A DNA stretch of 64,000 nt, from NCBI GenBank assembly GCA_038916785.1, contig JBCLBO010000001.1, positions 1,676 through 65,675 on the forward strand. The letters are read 5' to 3'. Shown here piece after piece: positions 2,620 to 34,798 of this stretch (position 1 is its first letter; each line of letters starts with the position of its first letter). The notes under the pieces were generated by a model. It had not been told where the DNA came from. It saw only the letters and a program-made list of their open reading frames with translations, and did no database searches. Source of the DNA: Candidatus Hydrogenedentales bacterium. GTDB taxonomy: Bacteria > Hydrogenedentota > Hydrogenedentia > Hydrogenedentales > GCA-2746185. The translations under genes were made by a program, and so were the position numbers.

Positions 2620-4658
2620 TGCACCTGGACCTGAAACGCGCCGGAGGCGCCTTCTTTTTTCGGGCCTTTTATGGTCAGTGTTACCACGTAGTCGCCCGGC
2701 TTTTTGAACGTGTGCGCGGCGAGGGGCGCGCTCGACTTGGCGCCGTCGCCGAAGTCCCAGTGGACGGACTCTAGGGCGAGCGTGGGACGATAGGAGACGG
2801 AGTATCCTGCTATGTAGGGCGGCGCGAAGGAGACGGGGAGGCGCCCGACGGGGCTGCGGAGGACGTCGTTGACGTCGAAATTGACCACTTCTCCGGCGCG
2901 CAGGGTGAGATTGCGTAGCGGCGGGAGGACATCGACTGGTGCGTTGCCGACTAGGACATCGGCCACGGCGGTCATGGTGTCGCCGAGGCGTTTTGTGCTG
3001 CCGTAGGTGATGAGGACTGCGTCCGCCTCGTCGAGCGCGGAGATGTCCCTGGGGTATCCGAGGACGACGGCGACGATGCGCTTGCCGAGCCGCCGGAACG
3101 CGCGGATGAGCTTCTGCTGGCTGGAGGTTTCGAGGTCGCCGGAGATCACGCAGACGACGGTGCGATAGCTATCAGTCAATTTCACGATGCGATTGAGTTC
3201 AAAGTCCTCGATGCGCGGGGCCTGGCGCGCGTTGGGCATGGAGCGCTGGGCGATGGGTTTGATGTATTCCTCGAGGGCGATCTTGAGTTCTTCGGCCCCA
3301 TATACGGCGACGACGGCGATCGGCTGGGAGAGGTCCTTGCTCAGCGGCAATACATTCGAGTTGTTGCGGACGAGGGTGATCGCGCGCCGCTCGATCGCGA
3401 GGGGCTCGGTCAGTTTTTCCTGTTTCTTCCCGAATTTTTTCGCCGCGCCGGCCACGTCCTTGTCTTTCTGTGGCTCGGGCAGGGCTTTTTTATACTCGCG
3501 GACGCGCGTGAGCGCGCGCTCGATGAGCGCGTCGTCGAGCGCCCCCTTCTGGACGCCATTGACCACCGCCGCGATCGCCTTGGTGACGCCGGGCCCCGGC
3601 GTGCTCCAATAGAACATGTCGGCGCCGGCGAGGAGCGCCTCGACGACGGCCTCCTCGGGTTTGCCGAGCGCTTTGATTTCCGGGGCGTCCATTGGGCCGG
3701 CGATCACGAGGCCGTCGTAGCCGAGGACCTCGCCGCGCAGGTCGCTGATCACGATGGGAGAGAAACAGGCGGGCGTCGCGCCGTCGATCGTGGGGACGAG
3801 GGCGACGCCGACATTGAGCAGGCGCGTCCCGGCATTGACGACGCCGACGTAGGGCGCGAGGTCTCGGTTGCGCAGTTGGCTGCGCGGCGTGAGCAGAATG
3901 GCTGGACGGCCCGCGCCGCCGGGATAGCCGATGGGCATCCAGGCGAGGCCGCGCGACTTGAGGGCCTCGTCGAACTGCCGCGCGAGACCCGCGCAGACCT
4001 GCGGGTCTTCGCCGAAGGTGTTGAGCGGATTGCCTCCGTCGAGTCCAGCGGTACCCGAAAGCGCGAGCGAGGGGCCCAGATGAAAGTCAAAGCCCATCGA
4101 ATGCAGGTTGTCGGCCATCACTCCGAAGGCGCCCGCGGTGGCATCGGAGGGCCCGGCCGCGGCCAGGCTGAGCATCATCGGCACGCGCAATACCGTGCTG
4201 ACGCGCGCGTCGCCGGCAAACTTTTCCTGGGCGAAGAGATCGACTCCGATGATGAATGGGAGACCTTCGTGCGCCGCGCCGGAGAGCGGGCGCAGGGACC
4301 GGACATAGGCCGCGGTGGATTCGGCCGTGGTGACGCGCGGCAGCACGATGGCGCCGGGCGTCAGCGTCGCGAGCAACTGACGGTCCGCCGCGGCGGGCCC
4401 GTTCACGCCTTCGAGCGTGACCATCATGAGCTGCGAGACGCGCTTGAAAAGTATCGTCATCGGATCGGGCTGGGGCGGAGGCGGGGCGGCTTGTTCCGCG
4501 GCCTCGTCCGGCGCTGGCGGGCGCGGCGCGGCGCGCGCGGGATCGACGACGTCGCGCAGGCCCGGCGCGGGGGCTTGCTGCGCCCACGCGGACGCGGGGA
4601 ACAGCGCTGCTAGTGGAACGGAGGCGACGAGGATGCAACGTGAGACGGTCGATCGCAC
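2616..4658 (-). CDS. Secreted glycoside-hydrolase-family-3-like protein with C-terminal PKD domain
   Basis: Signal peptide (ASAWAQQ). Long collinear resemblance to the NagZ/GH3 N-terminal domain. C-terminal PKD signature WDFGDGAKSSAPLAAHTFKKPGDYVVTLTI. The 3' end overlaps the mutY start by 4 nt. Confidence 0.7.
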   Translation of the reverse strand: MRSTVSRCILVASVPLAALFPASAWAQQAPAPGLRDVVDPARAAPRPPAPDEAAEQAAPPPPQPDPMTILFKRVSQLMMVTLEGVNGPAAADRQLLATLTPGAIVLPRVTTAESTAAYVRSLRPLSGAAHEGLPFIIGVDLFAQEKFAGDARVSTVLRVPMMLSLAAAGPSDATAGAFGVMADNLHSMGFDFHLGPSLALSGTAGLDGGNPLNTFGEDPQVCAGLARQFDEALKSRGLAWMPIGYPGGAGRPAILLTPRSQLRNRDLAPYVGVVNAGTRLLNVGVALVPTIDGATPACFSPIVISDLRGEVLGYDGLVIAGPMDAPEIKALGKPEEAVVEALLAGADMFYWSTPGPGVTKAIAAVVNGVQKGALDDALIERALTRVREYKKALPEPQKDKDVAGAAKKFGKKQEKLTEPLAIERRAITLVRNNSNVLPLSKDLSQPIAVVAVYGAEELKIALEEYIKPIAQRSMPNARQAPRIEDFELNRIVKLTDSYRTVVCVISGDLETSSQQKLIRAFRRLGKRIVAVVLGYPRDISALDEADAVLITYGSTKRLGDTMTAVADVLVGNAPVDVLPPLRNLTLRAGEVVNFDVNDVLRSPVGRLPVSFAPPYIAGYSVSYRPTLALESVHWDFGDGAKSSAPLAAHTFKKPGDYVVTLTIKGPKKEGASGAFQVQVQ

Positions 4659-4867
4659 AGTCTTTAACTCCGCGTGATCGCCGATTGTAACACCTAACCA
4701 CGCGGGTCGGCGAACATGGAATGGTGTTGTGAGACGGACGGCTTGGTTTTGAACGGTTCATATGTGTCCTGATAGGATTTCCGGCAGTCAGCGCGAGTTC
4801 CGGCGCGGCCCGTGGTCGATTCGTTCCCCGTTTCCGGCCGGCGGCGCCATTACCGAGTGGAGCACTC

Positions 4868-5710
4868 ATGTCCAGCCAGGATTTACGATTCAGCGGTACG
4901 GAGAAGTATTACCTCGACCCGGAATTGGGCGCGATTGTGAACATCGCGTTGCAGATGGAGAAGCCGCTGCTGCTGACGGGCGAGGCGGGCACGGGCAAGA
5001 CGCAACTGGCGATTCAGGTGTCGAAGTCGCTGGGGATGCCGATCGAGATTTTGCGGTGCAAATCGACGATCAAGGGCGAGGAGGCGTGCTACACGCAGGA
5101 CACCGTGCTGCGCTTGAACGATGCGCGCTTTGGTTCGGGGGAGACCGGCCGGCAGGTGCAGAGTTTTTACGACTACGTCGTGTGGGGCCCGATCGGACGG
5201 GCGTTTCGCGCGGACGTCAAATGTGTGTTGTTGCTGGACGAAATCGACAAGACCGAGTCCGATGTGCAAGACAACATGCTGGATATTCTTGAGGACTTCG
5301 AGTTCACCATCCGCGAAGTGAACACGATTGTCAAGGCGACGAACATCCCGTTCATTGCGATCACGTCGAACGCGAAACGCGAGCTTTCCGATCCTTTCCT
5401 GCGCCGGTGCTATTGCCACCATATCGCGTTTCCGTCGCCGGACCAGATGCGGGAGATCATCCGGCTGCACTATCCGCAGACGAGCGGCAAGCTGATGGAA
5501 GCGGCCGTGAAGATTTTCTACGACCTGCGGCAGCGCGGCTTCGAGAAGCCTCCGGCGACGAGCGAGTTGCTGAACTGGATCGGCGCGCTGGAGAACATCG
5601 GCGTGATTCCGGAGCCGAAGAACCCGCCGCTGGTCGGCGTGCTGCTCAAGCGCGCGAGCGACATTCAGGCGTATCGCGGCGATGGCGAAGGGCCGAAGAG
5701 GTTCGCGTGA
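4868..5710 (+). CDS. MoxR-like AAA+ ATPase (AAA_5 type)
   Basis: Walker A LLLTGEAGTGKTQLA and Walker B VLLLDEIDK. Size and layout are typical of MoxR/CoxD-like ATPases. Confidence 0.85.
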   Translation: MSSQDLRFSGTEKYYLDPELGAIVNIALQMEKPLLLTGEAGTGKTQLAIQVSKSLGMPIEILRCKSTIKGEEACYTQDTVLRLNDARFGSGETGRQVQSFYDYVVWGPIGRAFRADVKCVLLLDEIDKTESDVQDNMLDILEDFEFTIREVNTIVKATNIPFIAITSNAKRELSDPFLRRCYCHHIAFPSPDQMREIIRLHYPQTSGKLMEAAVKIFYDLRQRGFEKPPATSELLNWIGALENIGVIPEPKNPPLVGVLLKRASDIQAYRGDGEGPKRFA

Positions 5711-6957
5711 TGCGGGCGGCGGAGGACACGAAAGAGGGCTACAACGCGCTGTTCGTGGACTTCTTTTACCTTGCGCGTGAGTACGGCGTGCCGGTGAACA
5801 CGAAGGACCTGCTGGAGCTGAACCGCGGGCTCGAGAAGGATCTCGTGCATACGCTCGACGACTTGTTCGTGCTGATGCGGCTGTGCTTTGTGCGGCGCGT
5901 CGAGCACATGGACCCCTACGAGCGGGCGTTTGCGAGCTATTTCTACGGCATCGAAATCCCGGCGGTGGAGGAGGGCGACCTCTCGCTGCTGCGGACGAAG
6001 GAATTCCGCGAGTGGCTCAATCGCGCGATCGAGAGCGGCGAATTGCCCGCGCGCGCGAAGTGGGACATGACGCCGGAAGAACTAATGAAGAAGTTCTGGG
6101 AGCGCCTGAAGGAGCAGACCAAGGAGCACCACGGCGGCAGCAAGTGGGTGGGCACGCAGGGGAACTCGCCGTTTGGGCATTCGGGGAACGCGGAGAACGG
6201 CGTGCGCGTGGGCGGGAAGCCGGGGGGCGGATCGGCGCTGAAGGTGATCGGCGACCGGCGCTATATTTCGTATGCCAATTCGACGAAGCTGCGCAACGAG
6301 AACTTGCGTCAGGCGCTGGAGTCGATGAAGCACTTGAAGAAGGCCGGCGCGGAGGTGAACCTGGATCTCGACGAGACGATCCGGCGGACGTGCAAGAACG
6401 GCGGCGAGATTGATCTGGTGTTCTCGCGCGAATTGCGCGACCGGATGAAACTGATGCTGCTGATCGACAACGGCGGCTACTCGATGACGCCGTATGTGAA
6501 TCTGACGCGGCTGTTGTTTGCGAAGATGCACGACCGCTTCGAGGACGTGAAGACCTACTATTTCCATAACACGATTTACGAGAAAGTCTGGGTGGATCAG
6601 CGGCGGATCCGCGGGATCAACGTGGAAAAGCTCTTGCAGGAGCGGCCGGACACCCGCATCGTGATCGTCGGCGATGCGACGATGGCGCCGGAGGAGTTGG
6701 TGTCGCCCTTTGGGTCGATCACCGGGTTCGATTTGCAGGACGCGCGCGCATCGATCTATTGGATGGAGCGCATCGCGGATCGGTTCAAGCACACGGTGTG
6801 GCTCAACCCCATTCCGCGCGAGCGCTGGGGCGGGAACTACGGCGCGTTTACGCTCAAAAAACTCCGCGAAGTCTTTCACATGGAAGACATGACGCTCGGC
6901 GGCGTGAAGGGCATGGTCCATAAGCTGAGCGACCGGACCGGCCGCGACGAGAACTAA
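5710..6957 (+). CDS. VWA-domain protein, CoxE-like partner of the MoxR ATPase
   Basis: ATG at 5710 overlaps the upstream stop (ATGA). C-terminal VWA-like block KLMLLIDNGGYSMTPY...RIVIVGDATMAP. The part of the ORF track upstream of 5710 (from 5407) lies inside the MoxR gene. Confidence 0.75.
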   Translation: MRAAEDTKEGYNALFVDFFYLAREYGVPVNTKDLLELNRGLEKDLVHTLDDLFVLMRLCFVRRVEHMDPYERAFASYFYGIEIPAVEEGDLSLLRTKEFREWLNRAIESGELPARAKWDMTPEELMKKFWERLKEQTKEHHGGSKWVGTQGNSPFGHSGNAENGVRVGGKPGGGSALKVIGDRRYISYANSTKLRNENLRQALESMKHLKKAGAEVNLDLDETIRRTCKNGGEIDLVFSRELRDRMKLMLLIDNGGYSMTPYVNLTRLLFAKMHDRFEDVKTYYFHNTIYEKVWVDQRRIRGINVEKLLQERPDTRIVIVGDATMAPEELVSPFGSITGFDLQDARASIYWMERIADRFKHTVWLNPIPRERWGGNYGAFTLKKLREVFHMEDMTLGGVKGMVHKLSDRTGRDEN

Positions 6958-27778: not shown

Positions 27779-29092
27779 ATGAGCCAGGATTTATTCGAAC
27801 ATTCGGCGGCGGCCCGGCTGCGCAAGGAGGCGCCGCTGCCGCGCCGGGTTGCGCCGCGGACCTTGGATGAGATCGCGGGGCAAGAGCATATCCTTGGGCC
27901 GGGAAGGTTGCTGCGGCGGGCGATCGAGGCGGATCGGATCACGTCGATCATTCTGTTCGGGCCGCCGGGATCGGGAAAGACTGCCCTGGCGCGGCTGATC
28001 GCGATGCGCACGAAGGCGGCGTTTGAGAATCTGAACGCCGTGACGAGCGGCGTGAAGGACGTGCGCGAGGTGATCGAGCGCGCAAAGCAGCGGCGCGTGC
28101 AGGACGGGCGGCGGACGATCCTGTTCGTGGACGAGATTCACCGCTTCAACCGTTCGCAGCAGGACGCGCTACTGCCGGATGTCGAAAACGGAAACATCAT
28201 TCTGATCGGCGCGACTACGGAGAACCCATTCTTCTCGATCGTGTCGCCGCTGCTGTCGCGATCGCAGTTGTTTGAGTTCAAGCAGCTCAGCGAAGAGGCC
28301 GTGCAGGGGTTATTGCGCCGCGCGCTGACGCACCCCGAGCGCGGGTTGGACGAACTTCAGGTCGAAGTGGACGATGCGGCGATCGAACACATTGCGCGGT
28401 ACTCCGAAGGCGACGCGCGGCGGGCGCTGAACGCGCTCGAGATCGCGATGCTCACGACGCCGCCGCAGGACGGGCGCATCCGCATCACGGCGCAGATCGC
28501 GGCGGAATCCATCCAGAAGAAAATCATGCACTACGACGGGACCGGCGACGAGCACTACGACGCGGCCTCGGCCTTCATCAAGAGTATGCGCGGGTCGAAC
28601 CCGGACTCTGCCCTGTATTGGATGGCGCGGATGATGGAGGCGGGCGACGAGCCGCGGTTCATCGCGCGGCGCATGTGTATCTTCGCGTCGGAGGACGTGG
28701 GCAATGCGGACCCGATGGGCCTGGTGCTGGCGACGAGCGCGGCGCAGGCCTGCGAATTCATCGGTATGCCCGAGGCCCGGATCATCCTCGCGCACGCGGC
28801 GACCTATCTGGCGTCCGCGCCGAAGAGCAACGCGAGCTACCTGGCGATCGAGCAGGCGCTGGAGGACGTGAAGGCGAAAAAGACCATCGCCGTGCCGAGT
28901 CATTTGCGCGACGGCGGATCGCGCGGCCAGGAAATCGGCCGCGGGATCGGGTATCAGTATCCCCACGATTTCGCGGGCGGCTTCGTCGCGCAAGAGTACG
29001 GCGTGCCGCTGGGGACCTATTATCAGCCGACCGATCATGGCAAGGAGGCCGAGATTAAACAGCGCCTCGACGGATTAAAACGCGACACGTAG
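27779..29092 (+). CDS. rarA: Replication-associated recombination protein A (RarA/MgsA)
   Basis: Walker A GPPGSGKTALA, Walker B ILFVDEIHRFN, and C-terminal MgsA block YWMARMMEAGDEPRFIARRM. Confidence 0.93.
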   Translation: MSQDLFEHSAAARLRKEAPLPRRVAPRTLDEIAGQEHILGPGRLLRRAIEADRITSIILFGPPGSGKTALARLIAMRTKAAFENLNAVTSGVKDVREVIERAKQRRVQDGRRTILFVDEIHRFNRSQQDALLPDVENGNIILIGATTENPFFSIVSPLLSRSQLFEFKQLSEEAVQGLLRRALTHPERGLDELQVEVDDAAIEHIARYSEGDARRALNALEIAMLTTPPQDGRIRITAQIAAESIQKKIMHYDGTGDEHYDAASAFIKSMRGSNPDSALYWMARMMEAGDEPRFIARRMCIFASEDVGNADPMGLVLATSAAQACEFIGMPEARIILAHAATYLASAPKSNASYLAIEQALEDVKAKKTIAVPSHLRDGGSRGQEIGRGIGYQYPHDFAGGFVAQEYGVPLGTYYQPTDHGKEAEIKQRLDGLKRDT

Positions 29093-29281
29093 GGGCGGCC
29101 CCCCGTGGCCGCCCTCGGGTTCGTTGCGTGATGAGTGATCGCGGGTGGGCATAGGGCGGCCGCCCTCGGGTTCGTTGCGTGATGCGTGATCGCGGGTGGG
29201 CACAGGGCGGCGACCCTCGGGTTCGTTGCGTGATGAGTGATCGCGGGTGGGCATAGGGCGGCCACGGGGGGCCGCCCCTAC
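29089..29281. repeat. REP family D doublet whose spacer is expanded by 3 tandem ~51-bp units
   Basis: The arms at 29089-29115 and 29255-29281 carry the same sequence as at 14459-14538. The interior holds units of GCCCTCGGGTTCGTTGCGTGATG[A/C]GTGATCGCGGGTGGGCA[T/C]AGGGCGGC starting at 29111, 29162 and 29212. The rarA stop codon lies inside the left arm. Confidence 0.85.
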
Positions 29282-29376
29282 AGTTGGTTTCGGGCGCGAT
29301 TTCACTTGGCGTGGTAAACTTTAGGTGCAGAGTTTGACGTGTTCCTGGCCGGGGGACGGCCGGGTATTACGGGGGA

Positions 29377-30864
29377 ATGGGGACGGTGAAGGAGCCATCC
29401 GGCGCCGAGCGGCGCACTGCGGAGCGCATCCAGACGCACCACCATGTGGTGTTCTCGGAGTCGCGCGCGCTGGGCCCGCTGCGGACGGGCGTCGCGTCCG
29501 ATCGATCGAGCGGTGGATTGCGCATCATCACGCCGCATCCGGAGCCCCTGGGTACGACGCTGCTGATCGAACTGCGGACTTCCGCGAACTCGAGTTCGGT
29601 GCTACTGCTCGAGGGCCGCGTGGTCCACATCACGCCCGCGGAGAAGGGCCAGCACGCGATGGGCATTCGCCTGATCCAGCCGACGCTTCGGCCCGGCGCG
29701 GCCTTGCCGGTGCGCCAAGGGCGTGCGGCAGCGCCGACGATGGCGGCGTCCGTGCGAGTCTCGCCGCGCCCCGTGGCCGCGCCGATGGGCATGGCGCCGG
29801 ACTTGGAGATGACGGAGGCGGTCACGTTTCGCCGGATCGAGGACGGCGGCCGGCCGGGATCGTGGGTGGCGCTACTCGCGATTCTCGCACTCGTCGTCAT
29901 TTTGATTTTGTTGATCGTCGAAGCGATGCGCGAACGCGAGCGCGTCGGTTGGATCGGCCTGCTGGAGCGTTTCCATTTGGACGGGCTTTTCGCGAAGAGC
30001 GCGCCGGAATCCGAGGGGCCGGGATCGGGCGCAGCATCGGAATCGAAAACGTCAATGGACACAGAGACTACGCCTGGGGACACGCAGGCGCCCGTTGGCG
30101 CGCGCGGCGAGTTGCAGCCGCACCGGGTGACGGGTGTCGCGCCTGCGGTGGGCGCGCCGGAGTTGCTCGATGCGTTTAGCGGCGCGGCGACGTTCGCCGG
30201 CGCGCCGCCGGAATTGCGCGGGAGCGCGCCTCTCTCCGCGTCCGGATTCGCGGCGATGCTCGCGTACGCCGATCGCGCCGCGGCGCGAGGTGAGACGAGC
30301 CTGGCGCGCGCCGTCGTGCGCCGCGCGATGGCTAGATCGGATGGAGTGCCTGCGGCGTGGGTGGAACTCGGCGCGGAATACCGTGGCACCCTTGAATTGG
30401 GCGGCGAGATCGCGCCGGCGTATCCCTTGAGTGAAGAGATTGGATTCGACGCGGCTGGTCCCCCGGAGGGCATGCCCACGGATGTGCGGATCGAAGTCGA
30501 CACGAGCGATCATCTGATGCGCGTGTGGCGCAGCGACCAGGCGCTCGCGGAATTTCCGGTCGGGCTTGGGCGCGACGGCGCGACTCCGCACGGGGAATTT
30601 CGCATCGGGTCGAAGGCGCGCCGGCCGGATTGGTATCACGGCGGCCGCGTGGTGCCTGCGGGCGATCCCGGCAACCCGATCGGCGAGCAGTGGCTGGGCC
30701 TGGCACGGGACGGCGCGCGTACGGGCATCGGCATCCACCCAACGGAGCATCCGTCGTCCATCGGCGCGGACCAGAGCCTGGGTTGCGTGCGGATGCGGCC
30801 GGAAGATGCCGAGGCGCTGTACCGGCTCGTGCCGCTCGGCGCGAGGGTCACCATCCATCCCTGA
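29377..30864 (+). CDS. PilZ domain - TM helix - L,D-transpeptidase (YkuD) fusion protein
   Basis: The N-terminus has PilZ c-di-GMP motifs RxxxR (RRTAER) and DxSxxG (DRSSGG). TM helix WVALLAILALVVILILLIV. The C-terminus reads GIGIHPTEHPSSIGADQSLGCVRMRPEDAEALY, giving the YkuD His plus the SxGC(V/I)R(M/L) catalytic Cys. Confidence 0.75.
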   Translation: MGTVKEPSGAERRTAERIQTHHHVVFSESRALGPLRTGVASDRSSGGLRIITPHPEPLGTTLLIELRTSANSSSVLLLEGRVVHITPAEKGQHAMGIRLIQPTLRPGAALPVRQGRAAAPTMAASVRVSPRPVAAPMGMAPDLEMTEAVTFRRIEDGGRPGSWVALLAILALVVILILLIVEAMRERERVGWIGLLERFHLDGLFAKSAPESEGPGSGAASESKTSMDTETTPGDTQAPVGARGELQPHRVTGVAPAVGAPELLDAFSGAATFAGAPPELRGSAPLSASGFAAMLAYADRAAARGETSLARAVVRRAMARSDGVPAAWVELGAEYRGTLELGGEIAPAYPLSEEIGFDAAGPPEGMPTDVRIEVDTSDHLMRVWRSDQALAEFPVGLGRDGATPHGEFRIGSKARRPDWYHGGRVVPAGDPGNPIGEQWLGLARDGARTGIGIHPTEHPSSIGADQSLGCVRMRPEDAEALYRLVPLGARVTIHP

Positions 30865-31065
30865 ATTATCTTGCAAGCCGTTCGGAGGGTAGCTGTCTAC
30901 TGGATGAGCCGCGGGTTGTTCGATTCGTTGCTCGTGTTACCGGGGGGGAGATTCTTCGCTACCGCTCAGAATGACAAAGGTTTTTTCTTCTTGTTTGAAC
31001 TGAAGTGCCTAGGAAGAAGATCCAAAGAGTTGTGACCGTTGCCGGGGCAGGCATAGCATAGGGCC

Positions 31066-32640
31066 ATGCGCACAAACCTGAAGCGCTTCGCCGATGCCGT
31101 CCGCCGCGCGCAGCGCTTCGCCATGCACGACATCTGGCAGATCGGCACTCCGGGCGAGGAGCTCCCGCGCGGATTCATCATCAAGCAAATCCGCGTGGCG
31201 ATTTTGCTCGGCAGCAAGCTGCTCGATGGCATGCACATGGTCCGCGCGGCGTCGCTCACCTTCGCTACGCTGCTCTCGATCGTGCCACTCTTGGCGCTGC
31301 TGTTTTTTGTGATTCAGCGGCTCGACCTCGGCGAGCAGGTCTACGGTTACATTGAAAACCGGGTGGAGTCCGTCGCTGAACTCGTTGCGCCGCGCCCGGC
31401 GCAGCCGCCGGCGCCGGGAGTGGATATCTCCGCCACGCCGCTGCCCTTGGCGCCGCAGGTGGAACCGGCGCCGGAGGGCCCGCTGGCGCCGGAAGACACG
31501 GGCAGCACACGGCTACAACGAGACATCGTCGCCGCGTTGTTCCAGGGGGTCACCCGGCCGGGGGAGGAAATGAAGGACCCGGTGGACGGCATCTCGTCCA
31601 CCGCGGACACGATCGCGAAGTTGGCGAACGACGCGGCGGCGAATTCGACCGCGCTCACGGTGTCTGGCGTCATCTTGGTATTGACGACCGTTTTCGGCCT
31701 GATGCGCAACGTCGAGAACGTGTTCAACCGCATCTGGGGCGTGCGCCGCCGCCGCGCGTGGTACCGCACCTTCGCCGACTATTTCCTCATCATGGTGCTG
31801 CTGCCCTTCGTCGTCGCCGCGGTGATGGGCGTGCTGGCCGCATTGCAGAGCGAGTCGGTGTCACGCGCGGTGGGGCCCTTCGCCTTTGTGCTCGGGCTTG
31901 GGCAGTACGTGTTGGTGGTTGTCGTGTTCACCTCGCTGTATCGCTTCGTGCCGAACACGACGGTACGGTTTCGTTACGCGCTGCTCGCCGGTGTGATCGC
32001 GGGGACGCTTTGGGTGGGGCTGTCCTGGGGCTATGTGCAATTTCAGTTCGGCCTCACGCGCTACGCCGTCGTCCTCTCGGCATTCGCGCAATTCCCGATG
32101 TTGTTGATGTGGATATACCTGAGTTGGGCGATTGTGCTTTTGGGATGCGAAGTCGCTTATGCGTATCAACACGAAAGGACCTTCGCGTTGGAACGCTTCG
32201 CCGACGAAGCCAGCTACGCCTATCGCGAGGCCGTCGGTCTGCGCGCCATGGTCGAAATCGGCCGCCGTTTTTCCGAAGGCCGGCCCGGGTTCACCGCGGA
32301 GGTGGCCTCCGCAGAGTGGAATGTTCCGCTTCGCCTATTGAATGACGTGCTCGACGCGCTCGCGCGCGGCGGTCTGCTCGCCGTGCGTTTGGCGGAGCCG
32401 CCGGAATATCAACCCGCGCGGCCGCTCGACAAGATTGCGGCGGGCGATATCGTGCATGTGTTGCGTCAGGACGGAACCGATCCTTCGCGATTCTTGTCGG
32501 ACGGCCGGTGCCGGAAACTCTTCGACGAGCTTGGCCGCACGGACCGCGCGTTCGCAGGCGCAACGCTCGCCGATCTCGTCGAAGGATACGTGCAATCGCT
32601 CAGCGCGCCGGCCGCGAGCCGTCCTTCCGTCAATGCCTGA
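31066..32640 (+). CDS. YihY/BrkB-family membrane protein with C-terminal winged-helix-like domain
   Basis: RAASLTFATLLSIVPLLALLF and RRRAWYRTFADYFLIMVLLPF are typical of the YihY family. There are about 6 TM helices. The soluble tail is Rrf2-like (WNVPLRLLNDVLDALARGGLL). Confidence 0.85.
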   Translation: MRTNLKRFADAVRRAQRFAMHDIWQIGTPGEELPRGFIIKQIRVAILLGSKLLDGMHMVRAASLTFATLLSIVPLLALLFFVIQRLDLGEQVYGYIENRVESVAELVAPRPAQPPAPGVDISATPLPLAPQVEPAPEGPLAPEDTGSTRLQRDIVAALFQGVTRPGEEMKDPVDGISSTADTIAKLANDAAANSTALTVSGVILVLTTVFGLMRNVENVFNRIWGVRRRRAWYRTFADYFLIMVLLPFVVAAVMGVLAALQSESVSRAVGPFAFVLGLGQYVLVVVVFTSLYRFVPNTTVRFRYALLAGVIAGTLWVGLSWGYVQFQFGLTRYAVVLSAFAQFPMLLMWIYLSWAIVLLGCEVAYAYQHERTFALERFADEASYAYREAVGLRAMVEIGRRFSEGRPGFTAEVASAEWNVPLRLLNDVLDALARGGLLAVRLAEPPEYQPARPLDKIAAGDIVHVLRQDGTDPSRFLSDGRCRKLFDELGRTDRAFAGATLADLVEGYVQSLSAPAASRPSVNA

Positions 32641-34798
32641 TCCCCGCAGCGAAGCCGCCCTCCCCGGCACCGAGCCGGTCACCGTCGAAGGGGTGCTCGA
32701 TAAAATCGTCTTCGAGAGCGCGGACTCGGGTTTCTTCGTGGGCCGCCTGCGCGAGGCCGGCACGAACGAGCTTATTACCTTCGTCGGCAACGTGATGGCG
32801 GTGTCGCCCGGCGAGACGATTCGCCTGCGCGGACATTGGGTGAACGACAAGAAGTTTGGCCGCCAGTTGCGCACGGAGTCGTGGGAGACACTGCGGCCGA
32901 ATTCGCTTGAAGGCATCGAGAAGTATTTGGGATCGGGCCTGATCAAAGGCATCGGCCCGACCTATGCCAAGAGAATTATCGAAGCCTTCGGGGTGGACGC
33001 GCTGGTGATTATCGACGAACACCCCGAGCGCGTGCTCGAGGTGCCGGGCATCGGCCGCAAGCGCGCCGATCAAATCAAGCAGGCCTGGGCCGAGCAGAAG
33101 AGCGTCCGCGCGATCATGGTCTTCCTGCAAGGCCACGGCATCAGCACCGGCCAGGCGGCGAAAATATACAAGCGCTACGGCGACGGCGCGGTGGCGGTGC
33201 TGCGCGAGAACCCGTATAGGCTCGCCGAGGACATCGCGGGGATCGGGTTCGCCGGCGCGGACAAGGTGGCCGAGAGCCTCGGCGTCGAGAAGACCTCGCC
33301 GCAGCGGCTCCAGGCGGGACTGATCTTCGCGCTGCAGGACGCGGCGGGCGAGGGCCACGTCTGCGTGCCGGAGGACCGGCTGATCGCGGCGGCCGCGGAA
33401 CTGCTCGGCGTGGACGCGAAGCTGTTGCCCGACGCTGTCCGCGCGCTGGAGAGTCAACGGCAACTGGCGCGGCAGGGGAGCGACTGTTACCTCTCGGCGC
33501 TGCACATCGCGGAGGCCGGCTGCGCGCACCACGTCAAGCGGCTGCTCGCGGCGCGGAAGGTGCCCGTCTCGATCGACATCGAAAAAGCGATCGCGTGGGT
33601 CGAGAAACAGCAGGGCATCCAGCTCTCCGTGGAACAAGCCGAATCGCTGCGCATGGCCGCGCACGCGCCGATGTTGGTCATCACGGGCGGGCCCGGCACC
33701 GGCAAGACGACGCTGGTGCGCGGGCTCATTGGCATCTTCGAGGCGAAGGGGCTCTCCGTGCTGCTCGCCGCGCCGACGGGCCGCGCCGCCAAGCGCATGG
33801 AATCGGCGACCGGCCGCCCCTCGAGCACGATCCACCGTCTGCTCGAATTCAGTCCGCGCACGGGCAGCTTCGTCCGCACGGAATATGACCCCCTGCGCGC
33901 CGAGATGATCGTGATCGACGAGACTTCGATGGTGGATGTCGGCCTTTTGCATAGCTTGTTACGCGCGCTGCCGAGCGACTGCCGCTTGGTGCTCGTGGGC
34001 GACGTGGACCAGTTGCCGTCGGTCGGCCCGGGCAATGTACTGCTGGACATCATCGCGTCGAACGTTGTGCCGACGGTGCGCCTGCGCACCGTGTTCCGGC
34101 AAGCGGCTGAGAGCGGCATCATTCGCAACGCCCACCGCATCAATCGCGGCGAGAACCCGGAATTCAACGCGGACGACTTTTTCTTCGTCGAGCGGCCCGA
34201 GGCCGAGCGCGCCGTGGGGACGGTCGTCGAATTGGTCACCTCGCGCATCCCGCGCAAGTTTGGCCTCGACCCGATGCGAGACATCCAGGTCCTCTCTCCC
34301 ATGCACCGCGGGCCAGTGGGCGTGGCGAACCTAAACCAGGCGCTGCAGGCCGCGCTCAACCCGCAGGGCGCGGTCACCCCGCGCCGCGGTTTCCGGATTG
34401 GTGATCGCGTCATCCAGCAGCGCAACAACTACGCCCTCGACGTGTTCAACGGCGACATGGGCCGCATCGAATCCGTGGACGACGACGCGCAGACCTATAC
34501 CATCGTCTTCGACGGCCGGCCGGTGATCTACGGCTTCGAAGAACTCGACGATCTCACGCTGGCCTATGCGATCACGGTCCACAAGTCCCAGGGGAGCGAA
34601 TACCCCGCGATCGTCATGCCGCTGGTCGCGCAGCATTTCATGCTGCTCCAGCGCAATGTGCTCTACACCGGCGTCACCCGCGCGAAGAAACTCGTCGTGC
34701 TCGTCGGCGACCCCAAGGCGCTACGGCGCGCGCTGCACAACACCGAAGTCACGCGCCGCCACACCCGCCTCGCCGAGCGCCTGCGCAACGAGATTTGA
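32633..34798 (+). CDS. recD2: RecD2-type ATP-dependent DNA helicase (RecD/TraA family)
   Basis: N-terminal OB-like VEGVLDKIVFESADSGFFVGRL, HhH region, Walker A ITGGPGTGKTT, LVLVGDVDQLPSVGPG, and C-terminal AYAITVHKSQGSEYP. ATG at 32633 lies just upstream of the yihY stop. Confidence 0.9.
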   Translation: MPDPRSEAALPGTEPVTVEGVLDKIVFESADSGFFVGRLREAGTNELITFVGNVMAVSPGETIRLRGHWVNDKKFGRQLRTESWETLRPNSLEGIEKYLGSGLIKGIGPTYAKRIIEAFGVDALVIIDEHPERVLEVPGIGRKRADQIKQAWAEQKSVRAIMVFLQGHGISTGQAAKIYKRYGDGAVAVLRENPYRLAEDIAGIGFAGADKVAESLGVEKTSPQRLQAGLIFALQDAAGEGHVCVPEDRLIAAAAELLGVDAKLLPDAVRALESQRQLARQGSDCYLSALHIAEAGCAHHVKRLLAARKVPVSIDIEKAIAWVEKQQGIQLSVEQAESLRMAAHAPMLVITGGPGTGKTTLVRGLIGIFEAKGLSVLLAAPTGRAAKRMESATGRPSSTIHRLLEFSPRTGSFVRTEYDPLRAEMIVIDETSMVDVGLLHSLLRALPSDCRLVLVGDVDQLPSVGPGNVLLDIIASNVVPTVRLRTVFRQAAESGIIRNAHRINRGENPEFNADDFFFVERPEAERAVGTVVELVTSRIPRKFGLDPMRDIQVLSPMHRGPVGVANLNQALQAALNPQGAVTPRRGFRIGDRVIQQRNNYALDVFNGDMGRIESVDDDAQTYTIVFDGRPVIYGFEELDDLTLAYAITVHKSQGSEYPAIVMPLVAQHFMLLQRNVLYTGVTRAKKLVVLVGDPKALRRALHNTEVTRRHTRLAERLRNEI

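Follow-up and report, generated by a model that had tools for sequence, protein, structure and literature searches.

In Pseudomonas aeruginosa, the alginate co-polymerase Alg44 (PDB 4RT0/4RT1) combines an N-terminal cytoplasmic PilZ domain, one transmembrane (TM) helix and a periplasmic C-terminal domain in one protein. We analyzed a gene whose product is predicted to share this arrangement, the PilZ-TM-TPR-like-YkuD gene at 29377..30864 (plus strand) of a 64,000-nucleotide stretch of DNA from Candidatus Hydrogenedentales bacterium (contig JBCLBO010000001.1 of assembly GCA_038916785.1, positions 1,676 to 65,675), to which we refer at its full length as the window and in which position 1 is the first letter. 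The open reading frame (ORF), stop codon included, encodes a protein of 495 amino acids (aa) that joins a PilZ domain to an L,D-transpeptidase (LDT) domain of the YkuD type, as recognized from the ORF list, from Pfam and from 27 homologues.

The likeness to Alg44 extends to the fold of the PilZ domain, since our model of this domain matches 4rt1 (Foldseek E 1e-3, TM-score ~0.6), and to its place in the protein, since the PilZ domain of Alg44 is likewise found at the N-terminus (10.1101/814665). Moreover, Alg44 works with a polytopic partner, Alg8, a parallel to the polytopic YihY/BrkB protein encoded next to the gene studied here. In contrast, the periplasmic part of Alg44 resembles HlyD/membrane-fusion proteins and has no enzyme activity, whereas the window protein carries a TPR-like module and a YkuD cysteine transpeptidase; the alginate operon (alg8/algK and others) is absent here, the neighbors being rarA, yihY and recD2; and the C-terminal helix through which the Alg44 PilZ domain dimerizes is not predicted in the window protein. 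Alg44 is the closest known analogue in topology and logic, but the window protein is not a member of the Alg44 family.

LapD of Pseudomonas fluorescens embodies the same concept, in that cyclic di-GMP (c-di-GMP) bound in the cytoplasm governs an activity on the periplasmic side of the inner membrane. However, the sensor of LapD is a degenerate EAL domain, and its signal is relayed by a HAMP domain and a dimeric membrane module of two helices. The periplasmic domain of LapD has no enzyme activity of its own but sequesters a protease, and LapD has no homology to the PilZ-YkuD protein. On the enzyme side, the YkuD-type LDTs (B. subtilis YkuD 1Y7M, E. coli LdtA-E, M. tuberculosis LdtMt2 and E. faecium Ldtfm) share with the window protein both the fold and the His...(S/T)xGC(I/V)R motif. 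Known LDTs are secreted, are lipoproteins or are anchored by their N-terminus, with LysM, PG_binding, Ig-like or NTF2 accessory domains; we know of none with a cytoplasmic second-messenger receptor. Planctomycetota proteins with a TM-TPR-LysM-YkuD layout share the membrane anchor, the long disordered tether and the TPR-like helix pair before YkuD, but they have a cytoplasmic tail of ~50 aa without PilZ and contain LysM, which is absent from the PilZ family.

Results

A conserved family of single-ORF PilZ-LDT fusions

The initial annotation of the window, made from the letters alone, had read this ORF as a PilZ domain joined through a TM helix to a periplasmic LDT domain, and had allowed that the ORF might be two genes joined by a sequencing frameshift. 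We sought the same architecture in other genomes. A word-indexed search returned the 27 homologues, with identities down to 31%, most of which have precomputed PF07238 and PF03734 assignments and a length of 450-530 aa; an exhaustive search with a profile, covering 1.84 billion cluster representatives, returned 702 matches at E<=1e-30, with near-complete length in almost all of the best 150. The PilZ-TM-YkuD layout in one ORF is repeated in over 100 clusters formed at 50% identity, is seen also in loci 37-75% identical to the window, and occurs as an unbroken ORF of ~450-560 aa in independent assemblies (NCBI, JGI, ENA, Logan) and in ~130 cluster representatives. Because the same single-ORF layout recurs in this way, we exclude the explanation that an assembly or frameshift artefact has joined a pilZ gene to an ldt gene, and the conserved columns within the linker regions also argue against it; the chance that the ORF is such an artefact is negligible. 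The fusion is real, and a large, so far unstudied protein family of uncultured bacteria conserves it.

Three sets of sequences underlie the conservation data below: an alignment of 20 homologues from the word-indexed search (A1); 132 near-full-length representatives, 26-50% identical to the query, from which the conservation counts were taken; and an alignment of the window protein with 98 more distant representatives (A3, 99 members). In A3, Pfam recognizes YkuD in every one of the 99 sequences, and 81 of them also have a PilZ match (best PilZ E 1.3e-13). Weak Pfam matches to DUF805 and OpgC were dismissed, as they coincide with the TM helix and with sequence of low complexity. The local G+C content of the ORF, 67-70%, is similar to that of its surroundings. 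An alternative start, GTG at 29386, lies three codons inward, and relatives begin near the same column of A1; the choice between this start and 29377 has no effect on how the protein is read.

The N-terminal domain is a PilZ domain with both motifs

The cytoplasmic PilZ domain (residues 11-103; 29407..29685, plus strand) was identified by Pfam, motifs, AlphaFold2 (AF2) modeling and Foldseek. PF07238 matches at residues 11-103 with E 7.7e-8 and 33.0 bits, against a cut-off of 22.5. The initial annotation had placed the PilZ signatures RRTAER and DRSSGG in the N-terminal part, and both are borne out: ERRTAER (residues 11-17, nucleotides 29407-29427) fits the (Q/E)RRxxxR motif and DRSSGG (residues 42-47, nucleotides 29500-29517) fits the (D/N)xSxxG motif. 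All six of R12, R13, R17, D42, S44 and G47 are invariant in A1. Among the 132 representatives, the arginines are kept in 90-94% (R12 in 103/114, R13 in 106/114 and R17 in 110/117), and the second motif is similarly retained, with D/N42 in 116/129 (90%), S44 in 112/129 (87%) and G47 in 125/129 (97%). As judged from this conservation, the motif positions are under selection.

The fold agrees with this assignment. The AF2 model of the full protein, built with the family alignment, has a beta-barrel at residues 18-99, and residues 1-110 modeled alone also form a beta-barrel with the six-stranded PilZ fold (predicted local distance difference test score, pLDDT, 81; predicted template modeling score, pTM, 0.70). 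The top 36 Foldseek matches of this PilZ-only model are all PilZ domains (TM-score up to 0.67, query-normalized). The best PDB matches are BcsA 4p00, MotI 5vx6, YcgR 5y6g, VCA0042 2rde, Alg44 4rt1, PA0012 8u0i and MapZ 5xly, and the majority of the matched PilZ structures contain bound c-di-GMP. When the PDB was searched with a sequence profile of the PilZ part, no PilZ structure was returned, the sole match being a chance one to an enoyl-ACP reductase (E 0.04), and in NCBIfam the myxobacterial PilZ paralogue domain TIGR02266 was matched below threshold.

The domain has every PilZ feature that we tested except the C-terminal helix. PilZ domains within fusion proteins keep c-di-GMP binding, and PilZ domains commonly bind intercalated c-di-GMP dimers, that of Alg44 being itself dimeric (10.1101/814665). 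From motifs and model, the PilZ domain of the window protein is apparently competent for the ligand, and binding is predicted.

The C-terminal domain is a YkuD transpeptidase with its catalytic residues in place

The periplasmic catalytic domain (residues 370-493; 30484..30855, plus strand) was assigned from Pfam, its catalytic residues and Foldseek. PF03734 matches at 370-493 with E 6e-24 and 85.7 bits, against a cut-off of 23.4, and covers profile positions 2-146 of 146. The catalytic motif quoted in the initial annotation lies in GIGIHPTEHPSSIGADQSLGCVRM (residues 450-473, nucleotides 30724-30795), where H454 and C470 are spaced as H-x15-C and the cysteine stands in SLGCVRM, fitting the pattern H-x(14-17)-(S/T)-x-G-C-(I/V)-R (S467-L-G-C470-V-R472). 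These residues are nearly without exception across the family: H454 is present in 132/132 representatives, C470 and G469 in 131/131 aligned residues each and R472 in 126/131, and in A1 H454, G469 and R472 are invariant with C470 in 19/20. The domain is modeled confidently (AF2; pLDDT 81-96 and ~90 overall for residues 370-495), Foldseek ranks B. subtilis YkuD 1y7m first (E 3.6e-12), with LdtMt2, Ldtfm and further LDTs next, and a profile search of the PDB also gives 1y7m (E 2.9e-17). The window protein is a member of the YkuD family and, by its residues, catalytically intact.

None of the named NCBIfam LDT equivalogs (LdtA-E, DpaA/LdtF, ElsL) was reached, the best being LdtE at 39.6 bits against a cut-off of 480. 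Since all score far below their cut-offs, substrate and reaction are not transferable by orthology, and the candidate reactions are 3-3 cross-linking, covalent attachment of envelope proteins and D-amino-acid exchange. The PilZ-LDT family has a PxW...VPAGDPxNPLG loop that falls in an alignment gap in B. subtilis YkuD; this loop may be like that of the proteobacterial ErfK/YbiS type.

A single TM helix is predicted to separate a cytoplasmic PilZ from a periplasmic YkuD domain

The PilZ domain is followed by a low-complexity linker (residues 104-145) and a basic juxtamembrane segment (residues 146-162, VTFRRIEDGGRPGS), which together span 29686..29862 (plus strand) and were delimited by pLDDT, conservation and K+R enrichment. 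The pLDDT is <50 over residues 102-159 (AF2), while the juxtamembrane V149 and F151 are conserved in at least 90% of A1, and the VTFRR motif is conserved together with the TM helix. The single hydrophobic helix described by the initial annotation was confirmed by Kyte-Doolittle analysis and AF2 at residues 163-181 (29863..29919, plus strand), where the 19-residue mean reaches 3.47; it is the only segment above 1.6, there is no second one, and in the AF2 model it lies within a long helix spanning residues 162-199. The N-terminus of the window protein has no signal-peptide character.

The same holds for the family, in which 123/132 representatives have exactly one TM segment. In the 124 representatives for which TM flanks were compared, the N-terminal side carries on average 4.58 K+R versus 1.90 on the C-terminal side, and the N-terminal side is the more basic in 111/124 (Wilcoxon p ~3e-20). 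Since the positive-inside rule then fits a cytoplasmic N-terminal side, PilZ is predicted to be cytoplasmic and YkuD periplasmic; the one TM helix and the lack of a signal peptide agree with the opposite placement of the two domains that had been proposed.

Beyond the membrane, an Ala/Gly/Pro/Glu-rich tether at approximately residues 182-287 (29920..30237, plus strand) is disordered by its pLDDT (<50 for residues 195-282, AF2), with low occupancy and conservation across the family. The initial annotation had described everything between the TM helix and YkuD as one long Ala/Gly/Pro-rich linker. This description holds for composition, as residues 183-365 are 40% Ala+Gly+Pro, but not as a uniformly unstructured region, because a conserved TPR-like module of three helices (residues 288-303, 307-319 and 326-340; pLDDT 81-89, AF2) occupies residues 288-340 (30238..30396, plus strand). 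The module is delimited by AF2, Pfam TPR_14 and conservation: TPR_14 scores 17.6 bits in the window protein, below the cut-off, but 31.1 bits, above it, in the orthologue from L008; A1 shows no variation at G305 or A310; TPR families are precomputed for several homologues; and there is a weak profile match to consensus TPR proteins. The probable role of this module is to select a protein partner or substrate in the periplasm.

The gene is followed by yihY in a conserved neighborhood

In the window, argB-argJ-argC on the minus strand precede a plus-strand series made up, in order, of rarA, pilZ-ldt, yihY/brkB and recD2. Upstream, rarA/mgsA (27779..29092) encodes an AAA+ ATPase (Pfam MgsA_C, AAA_assoc_2 and AAA) and is in the same place in the related loci L001, L008, L042 and L046. 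Downstream, the candidate partner gene yihY/brkB (31066..32640) encodes a polytopic membrane protein of 524 aa (PF03631, E 1.7e-45; TIGR00765) whose C-terminal domain weakly matches an Rrf2-like winged helix. It is followed by a recD2-type helicase gene (32633..34798; Pfam HHH_RecD2, AAA_19/30, SH3_13 and OB_YrrC), whose product has 721 aa from ATG 32633. This ATG overlaps the yihY stop TGA (32638-40) by 8 nucleotides, and since the 8-nucleotide overlap and the 721-aa length are found also in L042 and L046, the earlier ATG at 32342 given in the ORF list is probably not the true start of recD2.

The order rarA, pilZ-ldt, yihY, recD2 is retained in loci whose identity to the window is 75% (L042), 62% (L001 and L046) and 37% (L008). 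The yihY gene lies directly downstream in L001-L005, L007, L008, L041, L042/43 and L046; its spacing is 36-77 bp in L001-L005, L007, L008, L041 and L042/43, and the distinct loci number nine. The locus L041, from a deep family branch, retains yihY but lacks both rarA and recD2. Where the four-gene order is conserved, the envelope genes pilZ-ldt and yihY stand between rarA and recD2, two genes of DNA metabolism.

The intergenic regions around pilZ-ldt differ from those of relatives. In the window, ~165 bp of DNA with lower G+C content is inserted after the pilZ-ldt stop (30865-31038), while yihY follows at 36-39 bp in L042 and L001; the insert holds a short hairpin (cttcttg...ctaggaagaag) and a T-run, and the conserved yihY leader, ...CCGGGGCAGG(C/A)ATAGCATAGGGCCATG, is still present after it. 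This insertion may separate the transcription of pilZ-ldt and yihY in this genome. Between rarA and pilZ-ldt, at 29091-29283, an inverted repeat rich in G+C, gtaggggcggccccccgtggccgccc ... gggcggccacggggggccgcccctac, encloses three tandem 51-bp units (93% matches). This 51-bp unit is found nowhere else in the window, and the gap at the same position in L042 is only 86 bp. A promoter and terminator scan of 28900-31300 gave nothing that exceeded shuffled expectation, an Rfam scan of the window (c-di-GMP riboswitch, rRNA) gave no match, and no public sequencing runs are listed as containing the locus.

We also observed MshEN (PF05157) genes divergently upstream of PilZ-TM-YkuD members in two unrelated contexts, at 3839-5572 (minus strand) of L041 and at 4858-6928 (minus strand) of L045. 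MshEN is another c-di-GMP-binding fold, and these neighbors hint at a local c-di-GMP module.

Range and origin of the family

The taxonomic range is drawn from one pattern-limited genome scan and from unnamed cluster representatives. The scan gave full-length matches in metagenome-assembled genomes (MAGs) labeled Candidatus Hydrogenedentota, and most named relatives are Hydrogenedentota MAGs. Among the loci so labeled, L008 has an orthologue with the gene order of the window, L005 and L007 have orthologues whose synteny is partial, on short contigs, and L006, L009 and L010 have paralogues. Further matches, with unconfirmed labels, are in binchicken and SRP co-assembly bins labeled uncultured Nitrospirales/Nitrospiraceae and, in part, in one Rhodothermaeota-labeled MAG; given the Hydrogenedentota-labeled loci, we regard the taxon as probably Hydrogenedentota.

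The nearest PilZ-less relatives of the catalytic domain are Planctomycetota proteins, at 41-46% identity. One of them, in L032 (Phycisphaeraceae CP060234, 4966-6339), has a short tail (~50 aa), a TM anchor, a disordered tether, a TPR-like pair, LysM and YkuD. In a quick maximum-likelihood tree of the catalytic domain, the Planctomycetota relatives branch outside the PilZ-bearing family, with an SH-like approximate likelihood ratio test (SH-aLRT) support of 88; this tree fits a single origin of the PilZ-YkuD fusion, without proving it. We also noted rarA ~0.6-0.75 kb upstream of the TM-tether-TPR-LysM-YkuD gene in L032 and L021 (Phycisphaerales), with a gene resembling 5-formyl-THF cyclo-ligase, by reading of its translation, between rarA and ldt in L032. 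Since rarA also lies upstream of these PilZ-less genes, its linkage to ldt may be older than the PilZ fusion.

Discussion

On balance, we favor the view that the PilZ-TM-YkuD protein is an inner-membrane receptor-enzyme for inside-out c-di-GMP signaling with an Alg44-like topology. By this model, c-di-GMP would bind the cytoplasmic PilZ beta-barrel, as its motifs and fold suggest; the single TM helix would cross the inner membrane, making the protein bitopic; and the ~100-residue flexible tether together with the TPR-like module could carry the YkuD enzyme far enough to reach peptidoglycan. Binding of c-di-GMP to PilZ would then alter what the periplasmic LDT can do. Rigid allostery onto the active site is implausible because the ~100-residue tether is disordered and poorly conserved; the coupling route that we favor would instead be ligand-dependent self-association, placement in the cell, protein stability or engagement of a membrane partner, for which the best candidate would be the YihY/BrkB protein encoded directly downstream.

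Several observations weigh against this receptor-enzyme model. The charges flanking the TM helix of the window protein itself, 3 versus 3, are uninformative as to topology. A long C-terminal helix is a mark of canonical PilZ domains and the dimer contact in Alg44 (10.1101/814665), and no such helix is predicted here, none following the strand at residues 93-99 in the AF2 model and pLDDT staying low through the linker; likewise, the Pfam PilZ match stops at profile position 89 of 102. Motif scans found no GGDEF or EAL gene in the window or in 18 related loci, the only matches being spurious ones in overlapping or unrelated ORFs. Furthermore, a sub-clade of four representatives (P0135, P0140, P0143 and P0144; 529-557 aa; SH-aLRT 97) has lost both RxxxR and DxSxxG; its members have a cytoplasmic PilZ-barrel-like domain of ~170 aa without a Pfam PilZ match, followed by an extra predicted helical stretch. 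As the sub-clade keeps the PilZ-like segment yet lost both motifs, the N-terminal domain probably has some role that does not need c-di-GMP, and in another representative, P0026, RRxxxR is present and the second motif is degenerate. The missing helix, the derived sub-clade, P0026 and the lack of a cyclase gene in the loci scanned all favor an alternative in which the barrel is a c-di-GMP-independent interaction or localization module, like non-binding PilZ/xPilZ domains, and the transpeptidase is constitutive and merely positioned by it. However, the retention of the motif positions across the 132 representatives, and of all six residues in the clade of the window protein, is hard to explain without a ligand, the top structural matches are ligand-bound PilZ domains, and fused PilZ domains keep binding (10.1101/814665). 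We consider this alternative unlikely.

In another alternative, c-di-GMP binds, but the output is YihY/BrkB or some other partner, and YkuD fixes the complex to peptidoglycan, covalently or non-covalently, or remodels the wall locally. The close adjacency of yihY holds across deep branches and survives the loss of both flanking genes in L041, the activation of Alg8 by Alg44 is a precedent, the disordered tether speaks against direct allostery, and conservation extends to the TM helix and the juxtamembrane motif; these points favor this alternative. In contrast, a paralogous PilZ-TM-YkuD group (L009-L012, L044 and L045) occurs in other contexts without a YihY neighbor, which also counts against a part for YihY in the receptor-enzyme model; in the window, the insertion after pilZ-ldt keeps it apart from yihY; and the function of YihY does not point to an output. 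As regards the receptor-enzyme model, the linkage with rarA and recD2, genes of DNA metabolism, means that gene linkage need not imply shared function. That the output lies with YihY or another partner seems to us improbable. The receptor-enzyme model also has a more specific form, in which c-di-GMP would directly gate L,D-transpeptidation (3-3 cross-linking or envelope-protein tethering) through a single-pass receptor-enzyme assembled with YihY/BrkB; this form, as it stands, we hold to be doubtful.

The initial annotation knew of no characterized example of this architecture, and our literature search likewise found no paper describing a PilZ-YkuD or PilZ-LDT fusion, nor anything relevant on Hydrogenedentota with diguanylate or on YihY with YhjD. 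A review of PilZ domains lists many fusions, none with a transpeptidase (10.1101/814665), and as far as the literature that we searched shows, no c-di-GMP receptor is physically part of a peptidoglycan enzyme. The window protein would be a PilZ-fused effector with a new, cell-wall output, and the family suggests an undescribed direct link between c-di-GMP and cell-wall chemistry.

The family provides a natural single-pass protein of the inside-out kind in which to study how one helix conveys the occupancy of PilZ, with the sub-clade lacking both motifs as a natural "ligand-blind" comparison set, and although its hosts are uncultured, the hypothesis is easily testable in E. coli with recombinant parts of the protein. 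The conserved neighbor also points to a possible function for YihY/BrkB proteins. If gating with YihY were true, the protein would be the first case of a second-messenger receptor joined to a cell-wall enzyme, and the widespread YihY/BrkB family would gain a concrete role in the envelope. Exopolysaccharide synthesis, adhesins, motility and the cell cycle are known to be controlled by c-di-GMP, and LDTs act in envelope stiffness and outer-membrane tethering, in bypass resistance to beta-lactams and in stationary-phase survival. The PilZ-LDT fusion predicts that, in a whole phylum, a sessile/motile or growth/dormancy switch would be wired straight into wall chemistry.

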